Shown: positions 7,705 to 60,528 of the stretch, piece by piece | Position numbering within the stretch: position 1 is the stretch's first letter | Layout of the letters: each line of letters begins with the position of its first letter | Source of the DNA: Thermoproteota archaeon | Lineage (GTDB): Archaea > Korarchaeota > Korarchaeia > Korarchaeales > Korarchaeaceae | DNA length: 64,000 nucleotides | Assembly (NCBI GenBank): GCA_015522685.1 | Contig: WALU01000035.1 | Coordinates: 1-64,000, forward strand | Direction of reading: 5' to 3' | Translations under genes and position numbers: made by a program | The notes under the pieces: model-generated | Seen by the model: only the letters and a program-made list of their open reading frames with translations | The model's database searches: none | Told to the model about the DNA's origin: nothing

Positions 7705-7778
7705 GGGCCCGTAGCTCAGTATGGAAGAGCACCCGGCTTTTAACCGGGGGGTCGCGGGTTCAAATCCCGTCGGGCTCG
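7705..7778 (+). tRNA. tRNA-Lys(UUU)
   Basis: GGGCCCG/CGGGCTC acceptor stem, CCCGG-CT-TTT-AA-CCGGG anticodon arm, GGTTCAAATCC T-loop. Confidence 0.95.
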
Positions 7779-13314: not shown

Positions 13315-14589
13315 ATGGATTTTCCATTCTTTGGAGAGCTAAGAGATAACTGGAATCATGCATTGAAGGTTCTTAGAGCGAGGAGAAACTTACCTTTTGG
13401 GCAAGCTGAGGATATCATTAAGGAAGTAAAGGAGAGGGGATTAAAGGAGGTTTTGAGGCTTACGAAGAAATTCGATGGCATTTCTCTATCTCAAGATGAA
13501 ATATATTCGGAACCTGAGAATGGAGTGTTACCCTACTTCGTGGAAGAAGCGTTCAATAGACTTCTTTCTTGTGCAAAATCCTTGTTAAATAAATCGGAGT
13601 GCCATATAGGAGGGTTCTCAACTTCAATGGAATGGTTAAGGCGCTCTCCCTCGATGGGAAAACCCATCAGTAGAGTTGGGATATACGTTCCTGGTGGTAA
13701 CTATCCCCTCTTATCCTCACTTCTCATGGCCATAGCTCCTGGAATAGCTGCAGGGGCAAAAGAATTTGTAGTTGCAACTCCTCCTAGGAATTATAATGTA
13801 ATAGAGCATGCTTCAGCTAGGTTTGGAGCCAGAGAGTTCCTGAAAGTTGGGGGAGTGCAGGCAATTGCTTCTTTAGCTTATGGTTTGCCAGAGATAGGAC
13901 TTCGTCCAGTAGATATAATAGTAGGACCGGGGAATTCTTACGTTACAGCAGCGAAGCATATAGTATCTAGAGATATTAAGATCGATCTACTGGCTGGTCC
14001 TTCTGAAGTGCTCATATTATCGGACGGAAGCTTTCCAGTGGAGCTGATCGCTTTGGACATGCTTGCCCAAGCGGAACATGGACCTGATTCCATTGCTCTT
14101 ACCCTGACAACTTCACGTGAAGAGGCCATTGAGCTGAGATCTTATCTACTTAGATATCTTAATGTGGATAGATTTAGATCCCTCAGAAGCAGGAGTGGTA
14201 TCCTCTATGGGAAGAGCAAAGAGCTTGTTAAATTCAGCGATATCTTCATGCCCGAACATTTAGAGATCTTTGGTGATTTCCAAGCACGAATGGCTGGTGC
14301 CATATTTGAGAAGACAGGCGTTGTATTTGGTGATTATGGATATACCGGAGCTAATCATATCTTACCTACTGGAGGAACCCTACTGGAGAGACCCGGTTTG
14401 AGTCCATTCTCCTTTTTCAGGGGTTTTAGCGGTTCTTATTCTTATAGGCAAATGGGTAGTTTAAAATCTCAAGCTTCTGTATCTGAAATGACCGCTCATT
14501 TCGCTAGATTAGAGGGATTAGAGTATCACGCTAGAGCAGCTGAATCAAGGGAAAAACTTTATAAGGAGATCTCTGCTCAGGAAAGCTAA
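13315..14589 (+). CDS. hisD: Histidinol dehydrogenase
   Basis: GIYVPGG, GPGNSYV, AGPSE, QAEH, PEHL, GDYxxxGANHILPT, EGLEYHA. Confidence 0.9.
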   Translation: MDFPFFGELRDNWNHALKVLRARRNLPFGQAEDIIKEVKERGLKEVLRLTKKFDGISLSQDEIYSEPENGVLPYFVEEAFNRLLSCAKSLLNKSECHIGGFSTSMEWLRRSPSMGKPISRVGIYVPGGNYPLLSSLLMAIAPGIAAGAKEFVVATPPRNYNVIEHASARFGAREFLKVGGVQAIASLAYGLPEIGLRPVDIIVGPGNSYVTAAKHIVSRDIKIDLLAGPSEVLILSDGSFPVELIALDMLAQAEHGPDSIALTLTTSREEAIELRSYLLRYLNVDRFRSLRSRSGILYGKSKELVKFSDIFMPEHLEIFGDFQARMAGAIFEKTGVVFGDYGYTGANHILPTGGTLLERPGLSPFSFFRGFSGSYSYRQMGSLKSQASVSEMTAHFARLEGLEYHARAAESREKLYKEISAQES

Positions 14590-14590
14590 C

Positions 14591-14626
14591 GAGATGATAT
14601 GTATGGGGGATTTAGTTCACCTCTAG
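14591..14626 (+). promoter_or_regulatory. Leader mini-ORF MGDLVHL* (candidate His-sensing +1 frameshift site)
   Basis: SD-like GAGATGA 14591-97, 5-nt spacer, ATG GGG GAT TTA GTT CAC CTC TAG (14603-14626); +1 frame reads T-S-R-R-E-F-L-K into the binding-protein ORF; twin element at 21320-21355. Confidence 0.6.
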
Positions 14627-15743
14627 GAGAGAATTCCTTAAGATGGCAGTTGTAGGAACTGCCGGCCTTCTTGTCGGTGGATCTGCAGGCTATTTTTATA
14701 GATCCTCTGTTTCTCCCAGTAAGATAAAGCAAGAAGCTAGCGAAGCCAGTAAGGAGATTAAAGGAAAGGTTGCCATGTATGACTGGAGCAATAATAACAA
14801 TCCGTTCGTCTTTAAGTTATTCAAGGATAAGACTAGTGTAAATGTAGTGTACGACCTCTTTGATAGCGATGATGAGGCTTTCGCTAAATTAGAGGCAGGT
14901 GGTAGCGGATACGATGTAGTGGTTTTAACTGATAAATACGTTAGAAATGCGATAGAGAGGGGTTACGTTAGAAAACTCGATCAAAGCTCTATTCCAAACA
15001 TAAAGTACCTTGATCCTAAGTTTAGAGAATTAAAATATGACCCGGGAAATAAGTATTCTGTGCCATATGGATTTGGCAGTACTGCCATAGGATATAACTC
15101 AAAGAAAGTAAAGAATTTAACAAGTTGGAAGCAGTATTTCGATCCAAGCTACCTATCCAATTACAAGAAGAAAGTATCTATGCTCGAGGATCCACCTGAA
15201 GTGATGTTTGCTACCAAGCTCTATTTAGGTAAGAGTCTCGACGATTGGAGCGATTCTACTATGGGAGAAATTAAAGAAGCATTAATAAGGCAAAAGCCTT
15301 ACTTAGCGGGATATTTCAGTACGGATAAGTATATTCCCAATCTAGAGAATGGGTCTCTCATTGCATCCCACGCCTATAATGGCGACGTTTTAACAGCTAA
15401 ATATGGGGATGGATTCAAGGATCTGTCTTATCTAATACCAGAAGAGGGTGCTGTGGCGTGGATAGATAACATGCTCATCCCTAAGGATGCGTCTAACCCA
15501 GAAGCCGCTCAGGCTCTGATAAATTTCCTGATAGATCCTCTCGTTGCAGCATATAAAACGATCTCTGTTTACATTGCAATGCCAATACCAGCAACTAAGA
15601 AGCTATTACCACCAGAACTGGCCAGCGAGCCAGCTCTTATACCACCACCTGATCAGATGAAGAAGTTACATCTATCACCTGTGCTAACTGATAAGATCAG
15701 GGCAAAGATCAATGACGTATGGGAACAAGTCTTAGCAGCTTAG
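14603..15743 (+). CDS. PotD/PotF-family ABC substrate-binding protein with Tat signal; N-terminus needs a +1 frameshift (in-frame ORF 14643-15743)
   Basis: GGSGYDVVV, DPGNKYSVPY, PEEGAVAWIDNMLIPK motifs; SRREFLK is encoded upstream of the first in-frame ATG and bounded by in-frame TAG 14613-15. Confidence 0.85.
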
Positions 15744-15750
15744 GTGTGAA

Positions 15751-17034
15751 ATGTTGGTTTCAATACCAAGGGGATTCAGGGATTTCCCTCCCCCATTTAT
15801 GATACTTAGGAAGAGAGTAATGGAAAGGGTAGAGGAGATATTCAAGAGATATGGCTTTGATCCCTTCGATACTCCAATCTTAGAGTTATGGGAGACCGTG
15901 AAAGGTAAATTAGGAGAAGAAACTGAAAATAGGCTCATGTTCATATTTCCAGATTTTCTAAGCAAAGAATGGTATGCTCTCAGATATGAATTAACATTCC
16001 CTCTCGCTAGGTATATAGCTATGCACCCTGAGACTCCTCTGCCCTTTAAGAGATATCATATAGGGAGGGTATGGAGGCATGAAGAGCCCCAGAAAGGAAG
16101 GTATAGAGAGTTCTGGCAATGTGATGCAGATATAGTGGGCAGTCCTTGTCCAGAAGCTGATGCTGAGATAGTCAAGCTAAATATTGAAGTAATGAGAACT
16201 TTTGGTTTCAGAAGATATGTAGTGAAGATCAATGACCGGAGACTCCTGACAGGAATCTTTGAGGAAGAGCTTGGTATAGCAAAACCAGCTCCTGTATATA
16301 GATCTATTGATAAACTGGATAAAATTGGAGAAGCTGGAGTGAGAGCTGAATTACTCGCTAAGGGAATGAATAGTCACCTAGTCGATAAAATAATCAATTT
16401 AACTAGGATTAGAGGTAGGTTCGAGGAAGTCTACGAGGATTTGAGAGATATTAGCAATGAAAAGGTGAAGACCGCTTTAGACCATCTTGGGAGCATATTC
16501 GGCATAATTGAGGATGATAAACTAATCTTTGATCTATCCCTTGTCAGAGGTCTAGAGTATTATACAGGACCTGTCTTCGAAACAATTGTGAAGGAACCTA
16601 AGATAGGTTCTCTAGCTGGAGGTGGGAGATATGATAAGCTGATAGGTCTCTACTCCGGGAAAGATGTACCGGCCACAGGCGCCAGCATCGGTATAGAGAG
16701 ATTAATAGACGCCGGTCTGGAGCTTGGCATATTATCCCTTAGAGATAAGAGCTACATTCAAGTATTTGTAGTGAGTGTGAAGAGAGATTCCTGGAGATAT
16801 GCGTGGAAGGTAGCGGAGTTTTTAAGAAAGGAGGGATTCTATGTTTCCTTAGATCTTATGAGGAGAAGTCAATCAAATCAGAGAGAGTATGCAAGGAAAC
16901 TTGGAGCCAAGGTGATCGTCTTCGTTGGACCGAAGGAAAAAGATAAGAGGAGCGTTACCATATATTCAAATGGAATCAGGAGAACAGTTAGCCTTGAGAA
17001 TGCAGCTAGGACTATCAATGAGGTCATCTCTTGA
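15751..17034 (+). CDS. hisS: Histidine--tRNA ligase
   Basis: PRGFRD, LRYELT, RHEEPQKGRYREFWQCDAD, LVRGLEYYTG, GGGRYD, GIERL. Confidence 0.95.
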   Translation: MLVSIPRGFRDFPPPFMILRKRVMERVEEIFKRYGFDPFDTPILELWETVKGKLGEETENRLMFIFPDFLSKEWYALRYELTFPLARYIAMHPETPLPFKRYHIGRVWRHEEPQKGRYREFWQCDADIVGSPCPEADAEIVKLNIEVMRTFGFRRYVVKINDRRLLTGIFEEELGIAKPAPVYRSIDKLDKIGEAGVRAELLAKGMNSHLVDKIINLTRIRGRFEEVYEDLRDISNEKVKTALDHLGSIFGIIEDDKLIFDLSLVRGLEYYTGPVFETIVKEPKIGSLAGGGRYDKLIGLYSGKDVPATGASIGIERLIDAGLELGILSLRDKSYIQVFVVSVKRDSWRYAWKVAEFLRKEGFYVSLDLMRRSQSNQREYARKLGAKVIVFVGPKEKDKRSVTIYSNGIRRTVSLENAARTINEVIS

Positions 17035-21319: not shown

Positions 21320-21455
21320 GAGGTGAATGATATGGGGGATTTAGTTTGGCTTTAAGCCTTTTGATCTAGTTTTGCTACCTTCTGAAAAGAATAATGTGAT
21401 CCTAAAGCTTCCGTTGGAGGGGTTGGAGGTTCTCTTTGAGGGTGATTCTTCATGA
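21320..21455 (+). promoter_or_regulatory. Leader mini-ORF MGDLVWL* plus +1-frame linker ORF coupled to trpB2 (candidate Trp-sensing switch)
   Basis: SD GAGGTGA 21320-26, 5-nt spacer, ATG GGG GAT TTA GTT TGG CTT TAA (21332-21355); +1 frame open 21348-21455, ending in TGA that overlaps the trpB2 ATG. Confidence 0.6.
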
Positions 21456-22738
21456 TAAGGATAGATTTATCTCGAGAGGAGATTCCGAGTTATTGGTATA
21501 ACATCGTATCAGATTTGCCTGATCTTCCACCACCAATTCATCCAGCTACTAAGAAGCCTTTAGGACCGAGAGATTTTTATCCCATATTCACAAAGGAATG
21601 CGTTGACCAAGAGTTTTCCAAGGAGAGATACATAAAAATACCTGATGAGCTTAGAGAACTCTACATTAGGATAGGAAGGCCTACTCCTCTATATAGGGCT
21701 AAGAGACTTGAGAAATATCTTAAAACACCAGCTAAAATTTATTATAAGAGGGAAGATGTAACACCGACTGGTAGCCATAAGCTAAATACCGCGATTGTTC
21801 AAGCTTTCTGCGCTGCTAGGGAAGGCTTGGAGTATTTGACAACGGAGACCGGTGCCGGTCAATGGGGAAGTGCTTTATCCTATGCTACTGCTATGATGGG
21901 GATAAAAGCCATTGTGTTCATGGTGAGGATATCTTATCTACAAAAACCTTATAGAAAGCTAGTGATGAAGCTTTATGGAGCAGATATATTTCCTTCTCCC
22001 AGCGATAAGACCGAAATTGGGAAGAAGTACCTAGAAAAAGATCCAAATCATCCTGGTTCACTTGGAATAGCTATAAGCGAAGCTATAGATATGGCTAAAA
22101 ATAGTGATAAAGCTAGATACTCATTAGGGAGCGTACTCAATCATGTACTGCTCCATCAGACAATAATAGGCCAGGAGGTGAAGAAGCAATTTGAACTAAT
22201 CGGTGAGAAGCCTGATATCCTCATAGGTTGCTTTGGCGGGGGAAGCAATTTCTCCGGTTTCACATTTCCATTCATCGAGGAAATCTTGAAGGGAAAGGAG
22301 AAGTATGATGTTATTGCAGTTGAGCCTACGGCAGCTCCATCAATGACCAATGGGGAGTATAGGTATGACTTTGGTGATAGTGCTGGTATAACTCCTTTAA
22401 TAAAGATGTTCACTTTAGGACATGATTTCATTCCGCCACCAATCCATGCAGGTGGGCTTAGATATCATGGAGCTGCTCCTACAGTCAGCCTACTGAAATC
22501 TAAGGGGATAGTTAGATCAGTCACCTATGCCCAAGAGGAGACTTTTGAGGCTGGTAGAATTTTCGCAATGACCGAAGGTATAATACCAGCTCCTGAGACA
22601 ACTTATGCCGTTAAGGCAGCTATGGATGAAGCATTAAAGGCAAGAGAGAATAGAGAAGAAAAAGTAATAGCATTCAACTTTTCTGGTCATGGTTTACTTG
22701 ATCTTAAGGGATATGAGGATGTATTGAAGATCTCCTGA
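21452..22738 (+). CDS. trpB2: TrpB2 (stand-alone tryptophan synthase beta-like PLP enzyme)
   Basis: [46 protein letters not shown]; no trpA nearby. Confidence 0.93.
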
Positions 22739-37136: not shown

Positions 37137-37245
37137 GCCGGGGTAGCTCAGCATGGTTAGAGCATCGGACTCATAAGCGAGTCAGGGGCTCACGGTGCTC
37201 TGCTGGGAAATCCGGGGGTCCCGGGTTCAAATCCCGGCCCCGGCA
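37137..37245 (+). tRNA. tRNA-Met(CAU), elongator, with 34-nt intron at 37/38 (37176-37209)
   Basis: GCCGGGG/CCCCGGC acceptor; TCGGA-CT-CAT-A[intron]A-TCCGG; bulge-helix-bulge CTCA/TGGG with TAA and AAA bulges. Confidence 0.92.
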
Positions 37246-37257
37246 CTAATTATATAG

Positions 37258-37874: not shown

Positions 37875-37948
37875 TGGGGCCGCCGGGATTTGAACCCGGG
37901 ACCTCCGGCTCCCAAGACCGGCATCCTACCAAGCTAGACCACGGCCCC
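37875..37948 (-). tRNA. tRNA-Pro(UGG)
   Basis: Reverse complement GGGGCCGTGGTCTAGCTTGGTAGGATGCCGGTCTTGGGAGCCGGAGGTCCCGGGTTCAAATCCCGGCGGCCCCA. Confidence 0.95.
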
Positions 37949-60443: not shown

Positions 60444-60528
60444 TGCGGGGGGTGGGATTTGAACCCACGCACCCCTAAGGGAGCGGATCTTAAGTCCGCC
60501 GCCTTTGTCCTGGCTCGGCCACCCCCGC
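60444..60528 (-). tRNA. tRNA-Leu(UAA)
   Basis: Reverse complement GCGGGGGTGGCCGAGCCAGGACAAAGGCG-GCGGA-CT-TAA-GA-TCCGC, long variable arm, GTGGGTTCAAATCCCAC-CCCCCGCA. Confidence 0.95.

Follow-up and report, generated by a model that had tools for sequence, protein, structure and literature searches.

The stretch of DNA analysed here, referred to as the window, comprises 64,000 nucleotides from the genome (G000) of a hot-vent archaeon of the class Korarchaeia (GenBank assembly GCA_015522685.1, contig WALU01000035.1, positions 1 to 64,000 of the forward strand). It contains a cassette of 24 nt, located between the gene for histidinol dehydrogenase and the gene for a PotD/PotF-like solute-binding protein, which may act as a +1 ribosomal frameshift switch. 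The genus is represented by 21 species genomes, 11 of which carry an orthologue of the binding protein with 80-90% protein identity, all with the same open frame of 375 codons. Together with a sister cassette bearing a Trp codon, described below, 31 cassettes (11 His, 20 Trp) were compared. The features of the locus are as follows.

13315..14589, + strand: hisD, histidinol dehydrogenase (Pfam PF00815, 6e-77; TIGR00069, 257.7 bits, cut-off 243.8).
14591..14598, + strand: Shine-Dalgarno (SD)-like sequence GAGATGAT for the ATG at 14603; GRGGTG or GAGATG stands 5-7 nt before the ATG in all 11 loci.
14603..14626, + strand: His cassette, a leader open reading frame (ORF) ATG GGG GAT TTA GTT CAC CTC TAG (MGDLVHL-stop), identical in 11 of 11 loci of the genus.
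14605..14609, + strand: internal SD-like GGGGG, 5 nt 5' of GUU, invariant in 31 of 31 His and Trp cassettes and also present in the variant of genome G003.
14613..14615, + strand: TAG closing the binding-protein frame; YTAG is invariant in 31 of 31 cassettes.
14615..14621, + strand: proposed shift site GUU_CAC_C, where the P site would have GUU and the A site CAC, C 14618 would be passed over and ACC decoded; GTT-NNN-C is invariant in 31 of 31 cassettes.
14619..15743, + strand: PotD/PotF-like solute-binding protein in the +1 frame, with a twin-arginine translocation (Tat) motif at 14622-14642 and a hydrophobic segment from 14643.
14624..14626, + strand: stop codon of the unshifted leader; its counterpart in the Trp cassettes is TAA, TAG or TGA, and lies two codons later in G003.
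15751..17034, + strand: hisS, histidyl-tRNA synthetase (TIGR00442, 362.8 bits, cut-off 286.75).

The binding-protein ORF has 366 codons, from the ATG at 14643 to the TAG at 15741-43, and its frame reads upstream TGA (14595) YVWGI TAG (14613-15) FTSRREFLK ATG (14643). The motif SRREFLK (14622-42) is in frame with the ORF; the TAG at 14613-15 stands nine codons 5' of the ATG at 14643, and no ATG, GTG or TTG is found between the two. The ATG at 14603, which follows the hisD stop after 13 nt, lies one base behind the binding-protein frame and opens a frame of eight codons, MGDLVHL-stop. A +1 site has this layout, a short ORF overlapped by a second one that is in the +1 frame and lacks a start codon. 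Since the TAG closes the binding-protein frame upstream, a shift must follow it, and the frame layout alone limits the shift position to 14616-14624. When C 14618 is skipped (GTTC read as one step), the product begins MGDLVTSRREFLKMAVVGTAGLLVGG... The 3' end of the 16S rRNA of the genus is ...GGAUCACCUCCC, to which the leader SD matches in all 11 loci, and hisD adjoins the cassette in each of these genomes. The GGGGG inside the leader is complementary to CCUCC/CUCCC of the 16S tail GAUCACCUCCC, as is the SD-like element of a prfB-type site. On the other side, hisS starts 7 nt after the binding-protein stop, and its SD overlaps that stop.

A first-pass annotation of this DNA had claimed that the SRREFLK frame is closed by the TAG at 14613-15 without a start before 14643, that skipping one base at GTT-C-ACC gives a Tat N-terminus, and that initiation at 14643 would lose the RR motif. 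Frame reading confirmed the first of these claims, and the other two were borne out with the Tat model TIGR01409 (cut-off 16.7), which scored the GTT-C product at 23.3 bits and the product of a shift at CTC-T at 18.9 bits and gave no match with the 14643 start. The Pfam Tat model PF10518 scored 20.8 bits, under its cut-off of 22.7. The shifted N-terminus consists of S/T-R-R-x-F-L-K followed by a hydrophobic segment, which is the make-up of a Tat signal, and TatC is encoded in the genome (PF00902, 158.4 bits, contig C5). Paralogues and 114 family members have continuous N-termini of the form M-x(0-5)-[S/T/G/Q]-RR-[DE]-F-[LIV]-K, such as MTSRREFLK and MGTSRRDFIK, and most of the 55 family N-termini inspected follow M-x(1-5)-S-RR-[DE]-F-[LIV]-K. 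The paralogues of sister species begin MTSRREFLKIAIAG or MQRREFLKIAIAG (7 of 8 loci read; L014, which gave an unrelated reading, was dropped). A Tat-motif scan of G000 returned seven matches; besides the present locus, one of them has no upstream start, and it was taken as a chance match because a Met follows its RR by two residues.

The variation among the 11 loci bears on whether the RR motif is translated. In the codons for R-R-E-F-L-K, five of the six variable columns are third positions and the sixth changes Leu to Ile; in the 26 codons that follow, third positions make up 24 of the 36 variable columns. This pattern is a mark of coding selection on RR-x-FLK in the binding-protein frame. 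At 14643, two loci have ATG, five TTG, three TTA and one CTG, so that in four of the 11 species (TTA or CTG) the codon there is incapable of starting translation. From the sequence comparison we judge that 14643 is not the start and that the RR motif is translated. The public gene calls, which give proteins of 366, 339 or 322 aa lacking the motif, are hereby corrected as N-terminally truncated forms of the binding protein without its export signal.

The 24 nt from ATG to TAG, ATGGGGGATTTAGTTCACCTCTAG, are identical in all 11 orthologous loci; in an alignment of 1,695 columns, 53% of which are invariant, no other invariant run exceeds 8. The DNA identity of the binding-protein genes is 72-82% between distinct lineages and up to 98% within a lineage. 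Conservation beyond the neutral level is seen in the 24-nt run, and coding selection in the third-position variation downstream, as expected for a +1 site. The extra base and the CAC codon are kept in 11 of 11 loci, none of which has a continuous frame from an ATG to SRREFLK. The same 24-mer was present in five of five metagenome loci and in all nine matches of a degenerate scan of genome contigs, whose pattern left four synonymous positions free. The extra C is supported by an independent contig from a public run, which spans 14300-14683 without an indel and differs by a single synonymous T>C.

A second cassette is found in the same window, with its own leader and output gene.

21320..21326, + strand: SD GAGGTGA of the Trp leader; its GGTG core is present in 20 of 20 loci.
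21332..21355, + strand: Trp cassette ATG GGG GAT TTA GTT TGG CTT TAA (MGDLVWL-stop), starting with ATG in 20 of the 21 genomes and with GTG in G003.
21348..21455, + strand: +1-frame ORF of 35 codons, from the shift site to a TGA overlapping the TrpB-like start (ATGA), open in 21 of 21 genomes.
21452..22738, + strand: TrpB-like (TrpB2-type) PLP enzyme, the output gene of the Trp cassette (NF009057, 681.7 bits, cut-off 366; TIGR01415, 663 bits).

This sister cassette, ATGGGGGATTTAGTT-TGG-CTT-TAA at 21332-55, stands 120 nt 5' of the TrpB-like gene, and G000 has exactly two MGDLVxL-stop mini-ORFs: that with His between hisD and hisS, and that with Trp before the TrpB-like gene. A pattern search with up to three mismatches over 40 genomes of the class, for which the reversed pattern gave seven control matches, detected the Trp cassette in 20 of the 21 genomes of the genus; G003 is the 21st, with a GTG start, the stop two codons later and GCC before that stop. 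Elsewhere in the family, four genomes from other genera have the TrpB-like gene with no cassette upstream of it. Three-mismatch matches in other genera (L087, L096 and L097) were rejected as lying inside ORFs or lacking an SD, as was MGELVAK-stop on contig C12, which has no SD. Two look-alikes with three mismatches were also recorded, MGDGITL-stop at G010:C174:6559-6582, and MGALARL-stop at G028:C134:1359-1382, the latter without an SD and within control noise; candidate matches also came up on G010:C139 and at G019:C47:160135. The exact core GTTCACCTCTAG occurs once in G000, and allowing one mismatch adds 13 more matches, against seven for the control.

The +1 frame of the Trp spacer is stop-free in 21 of 21 genomes until a stop 1 or 4 nt past the first base of the TrpB-like start codon (ATGA, ATGCTGA or GTGCTGA), while each of the other two frames has at least one stop in every genome. 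Between the leader start and that of the TrpB-like gene there are 102, 117, 120, 123, 135, 141, 144 or 159 nt, in every case a number divisible by three. Different lineages have unrelated spacers, of at least five or six distinct types; by shuffling, the chance of an open frame is 0.12-0.39 per spacer, related genomes not being independent.

Across the 31 cassettes the invariant positions are ATGGGGGAT.TAGTT...C..T.., so that both families share AUGGGGGAUYUAGUU-sensor-C; the sensor is CAC within the his operon and TGG ahead of the TrpB-like gene. The Trp family varies in the codon after the sensor (CTT, CTC, CTA, CTG or CCT) and in the stop (TAA, TAG or TGA). In both cases a short ORF containing the cognate codon (His or Trp) lies 5' of genes of the corresponding pathway, as in a leader-peptide sensor. 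From the codon frequencies in long ORFs (14.8 per 1000 for His and 12.2 for TGG), the chance that both sensor codons match their pathway is about 2 in 10,000.

Taking as the observed basis the frame layout, its conservation, the coding selection on the RR motif, and the sister cassette with its open +1 frame, we infer that ribosomes shift at the cassette, where they do so, and that tRNA charging sets the rate. With a probability of roughly 0.7, the 24 nt constitute a programmed switch in which a sense codon gates a +1 ribosomal frameshift. Since GUU, the sensor codon and the C after it never vary, in contrast to the stop pair of the Trp family, the shift is placed at GUU_CAC_C, where the first-pass annotation had put it; the His codon is regarded as the gate because the sister cassette has a Trp codon before a TrpB-like gene.

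According to this model, ribosomes would start at the ATG at 14603 with its conserved SD and read Met-Gly-Asp-Leu-Val, bringing GUU into the P site and CAC into the A site. When His-tRNA(His) is ample, CAC and CUC would be decoded and translation would stop at UAG, a peptide of seven residues being freed and the binding protein not being made. When charged tRNA(His) is scarce, the A site would stay empty, and the peptidyl-tRNA(Val) could slip one base forward, from GUU to UUC; by analogy with prfB, pairing of the GGGGG 5 nt upstream with the 16S tail probably helps the slip. ACC would then be read next, giving MGDLV-TSRREFLK..., the PotD/PotF-like binding protein with a twin-arginine export signal. 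Histidyl-tRNA synthetase (HisRS) may rise too, because ribosomes finishing the binding-protein ORF would stop 7 nt short of hisS, the SD of which overlaps that stop codon. In the Trp copy, with UGG in place of CAC, the +1 frame would bring ribosomes to the start codon of the TrpB-like gene, where termination-reinitiation coupling may act.

The first-pass annotation had proposed that the exported form is made conditionally. This proposal fits the evidence, and the His gate is backed by the sister cassette with Trp; the conditionality itself is a deduction. The two His residues of the 366-aa ORF, which it had also cited, were counted correctly and are weak evidence.

Several points speak against a switch of this kind. 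The sensor is a single codon, not a run of codons as in bacterial leaders, and CAC is the rarer His codon (3.9 vs 10.9 per 1000), one tRNA(His, GUG) reading both. After the slip from GUU to UUC/UUU, two of three pairs are kept with the anticodon GAC, a tRNA-Val(GAC) gene being present; at a prfB-type site the re-pairing is complete (CUU to UUU). The GGGGG is spaced by 5 nt, vs 3 nt in prfB. CTC-TAG is invariant in all 11 His cassettes, for which the proposed switch offers no account beyond the overlapping Thr-Ser-Arg codons and the requirement of a stop close by. Only two pairs of sensor and pathway are available, and the genomes are related. Neither consensus nor single-sequence folds supported an RNA structure at the cassettes. 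Finally, no permease genes (potABC) are adjacent to the locus, and why a shortage of His should induce the binding protein is conjecture.

As to folding, the consensus fold pairs the leader SD with UCACCUC of the cassette without covariation, single-sequence folds differ between species, and the Trp leader folds no better than its shuffles (z = +1.56). With a single sensor codon and no support for alternative terminator and antiterminator hairpins, the leader departs from the attenuator type in these two respects. The UCACCUC at 14617-14623 has the sequence of the 16S tail and is complementary to the SD of its own leader, and several Trp leaders (L085, L088-L095) have a similar CACCUC just 5' of the SD, e.g. 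ctcacctcacggaggtg; these elements could mask the SD. A hairpin of 5 bp, AGGAG-AGAA-UUCCU (14625-14638), stands right after the leader stop, with one compensatory, synonymous double change in G019; for a thermophile such a hairpin is too weak to build on.

Among the alternatives, a constitutive +1 shift at GUU_C would be a 'corrected' indel that has become fixed and keeps expression low whatever the amino-acid supply. Conservation does not by itself establish regulation, and a single sensor codon in two contexts is what this explanation can point to. The variable codon, however, matches the pathway in both contexts, a coincidence of about 2 in 10,000 as calculated above, and the Trp cassette makes no fused protein; its only visible output is the delivery of ribosomes to the TrpB-like start, which is sensible for a control device. 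We therefore consider the constitutive shift improbable.

A +1 shift at the leader stop (CUC_UAG_G, Leu then Arg), in the style of prfB or antizyme, would be constitutive or set by the rate of termination, and the His codon would be incidental. The invariance of CTC-TAG agrees with this, as it ends exactly after the stop, and the CTC-T product still passes TIGR01409 at 18.9 bits. Stop codons are also the usual slow A-site signal at known cellular +1 sites, in so far as the relevant passages of a recoding review cover them (PMC5009743). Such a shift needs a fixed codon pair, but the fixed elements are GUU, the sensor and the following C, and the fixed A-site codon is CAC or TGG and not a stop as at prfB-type sites. 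The 21 Trp cassettes vary both the codon before the stop (CTT, CTC, CTA, CTG or CCT, and GCC in G003) and the stop itself, which in G003 has moved by two codons. None of the 55 family N-termini inspected has Leu at position -1 of the RR, CTC-TAG also ends four ordinary long ORFs in G000, and the twofold match between codon and pathway would be left unexplained. A shift at the stop thus appears rather less probable still.

It is very unlikely that no frameshift occurs and that translation starts at 14643 or later, the RR motif being an untranslated relic and the mini-ORF working by ribosome occupancy or reinitiation. In G000 there is indeed an ATG at 14643 with AGGAG 13 nt upstream, and public gene calls start there or later; against this, 14643 is TTA or CTG in 4 of 11 loci, the changes in RR-x-FLK are synonymous or conservative only, the family consensus puts the RR motif at the N-terminus, and the 339-aa start would delete the hydrophobic segment.

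On the sequence data, artefact or decay can be virtually dismissed: although a frame broken by one base in a metagenome bin is often an error, this one is neither a sequencing or assembly error nor a dying gene, because 11 genomes, 5 metagenome contigs and the indel-free independent contig agree in these bases and protein identity is 80-90% at a DNA identity of 72-82%, while transcriptional slippage is opposed by the lack of a homopolymer in the shift window TTCACCTC (altering the G5 run leads into the TAG), reading of TAG as sense by the lack of a start in 9 of 11 loci and by the 199 of 894 long ORFs that end in TAG, and a tRNA with a four-base anticodon by the ARAGORN results, which list ordinary tRNAs only. 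A -1 shift from an ATG at 14599 was rejected, this ATG being present in only 2 of the 11 orthologous loci.

Returning to the sense-codon switch, we consider it slightly better than an even bet, on the comparative evidence, that SD-AUG-GGGGG-AUYUA-GUU-[sensor codon]-C is a modular, retargetable switch of Korarchaeia, which would gauge the charging of one tRNA by a hungry-codon +1 shift. The His copy would yield export-competent binding protein, and HisRS by coupling, only under histidine shortage, and the Trp copy a TrpB-like salvage enzyme. The binding protein may import histidinol or a related amine for a salvage route through an orphan HisD, a suggestion made because in seven of the 11 cassette-bearing genomes hisD is kept and neither HisG nor IGPD was found.

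Among known systems, prfB, the gene for bacterial release factor 2 (RF2), has an autoregulatory +1 frameshift at AGGGGG-UAU-CUU-UGA-C, with a spacing of 3 nt. Both sites have a G-rich SD-like element near the shift codon, a waiting A site, a +1 slip of the peptidyl-tRNA and a short product ending at a nearby stop, and in both the concentration of a translation factor would set the rate. Here, unlike in prfB, it is a sense codon (His or Trp) that would wait, so that charged tRNA would be measured and not RF2; the P-site codon is GUU and not CUU, the spacer is 5 nt and not 3, the site is at codons 5-6, the host is archaeal, and one copy feeds a coupling ORF and not a fused protein. The bacterial hisL and trpL attenuators have tiny leader ORFs in which a delay of the ribosome at the cognate codon reports tRNA charging. 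The cassettes resemble them in being tiny ORFs with a cognate codon of the pathway that they precede, and differ in having one sensor codon and, as output, a change of frame with translational coupling instead of transcription termination. Frameshifting at Trp codons also takes place in tryptophan-starved human cells, where it is not programmed.

The +1 sites of yeast Ty1 and Ty3 and the 'hungry codon' shifting of Gallant are likewise driven by an A-site sense codon that is slow to decode; Ty uses a constitutively rare tRNA, as set out in passages of a review (Atkins et al. 2016, PMC5009743), whereas the codon here matches the pathway that would be regulated. In its passages on this subject the same review states that no natural starvation-specific trans-frame protein made at a hungry codon is known (PMC5009743). 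Antizyme (OAZ) is made by a polyamine-sensing +1 frameshift (PMC8211752, in part); it is similar in that a +1 shift serves as sensor and effector of a metabolite circuit, the occurrence of a polyamine-binding family here being coincidental, and different in shifting at a stop codon with a 3' pseudoknot, a dependence not seen here. In Saccharolobus solfataricus, fucA1 is expressed by a -1 frameshift at A-AAA-AAT (PMC8211752, in part); it is also an archaeal cellular gene with programmed frameshifting, though of the -1 type and with no known sensing role. The relevant passages of the 2021 review of archaeal recoding give fucA1 as the only demonstrated archaeal case and name no cellular +1 case (PMC8211752). 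A search of literature listings returned no report of a frameshifted Tat signal or of a sense-codon frameshift leader in archaea, and no natural example of such a switch.

The cassette would belong with autoregulatory +1 frameshifting. If the model is true, it would provide natural starvation-specific trans-frame expression, said to be unknown in the part of the 2016 review concerned (PMC5009743), and an archaeal counterpart of bacterial attenuation and T-boxes, as well as a very small portable part for synthetic control. Since the sensor codon is what distinguishes the two copies of a 19-nt core, and each matches its pathway, the model predicts that a codon swap should change the amino acid sensed.

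The binding protein matches Pfam SBP_bac_8 (7.7e-27) and falls short of the equivalog thresholds of PotF (178.9 bits vs 636) and PotD (145.3 bits vs 582); by these scores it is assigned to the PotD/PotF superfamily only. Its orthologues have 1-2 His per 366 residues, the family mean being 1.2% (n=114). A pocket stretch at 14776-14800 reads YDWSNNNNP vs YNWSYYI in paralogues, which G000 itself lacks, and therefore its substrate may differ from that of the ordinary polyamine-binding paralogues.

G003 (locus L062) has no binding protein; there only about 20 nt separate hisD from hisS, and an ABC ATPase and a 151-aa ORF precede the pair, as they do in the window. The place taken by the binding-protein gene and its cassette is therefore precisely the junction of hisD and hisS, which points to an insertion in the cassette-bearing lineage or to a loss in G003. 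The genomes with hisD are the 11 that bear the cassette, and G003. HisG and/or IGPD turned up in four of the 11 (G002, G008, G020 and G007), and neither in the remaining seven (G000, G005, G009, G010, G011, G018 and G019; completeness 70-98%), G000 giving only a weak partial His_biosynth match at a contig end. In those seven species hisD may be an orphan salvage enzyme. The His content, the hisD pattern and the G003 layout fit a role in histidine or histidinol salvage, short of showing one.

The 5' region TTAGGGTTCATCATGACG of paralogue A (L012-L016), about 20 nt before its ATG, resembles TTAGTTCACC of the cassette. The gene with the cassette has the look of a paralogue in which the bases around the ATG were lost, and this could be the origin of the arrangement.

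A genome-wide scan for +1-related ORF pairs was uninformative, its 246 candidates being essentially ordinary overlapping operon genes. Among the tRNAs listed by ARAGORN (27 rows in one listing) the anticodons were all ordinary, with no special tRNA with a four-base anticodon, and an Rfam scan of the window returned four tRNAs and nothing else. A tRNA-Ser(CGA) gene with an intron of 34 nt lies at 37137-37246, and the other tRNA genes are located at 7705-7778, 37875-37948 and 60444-60528.

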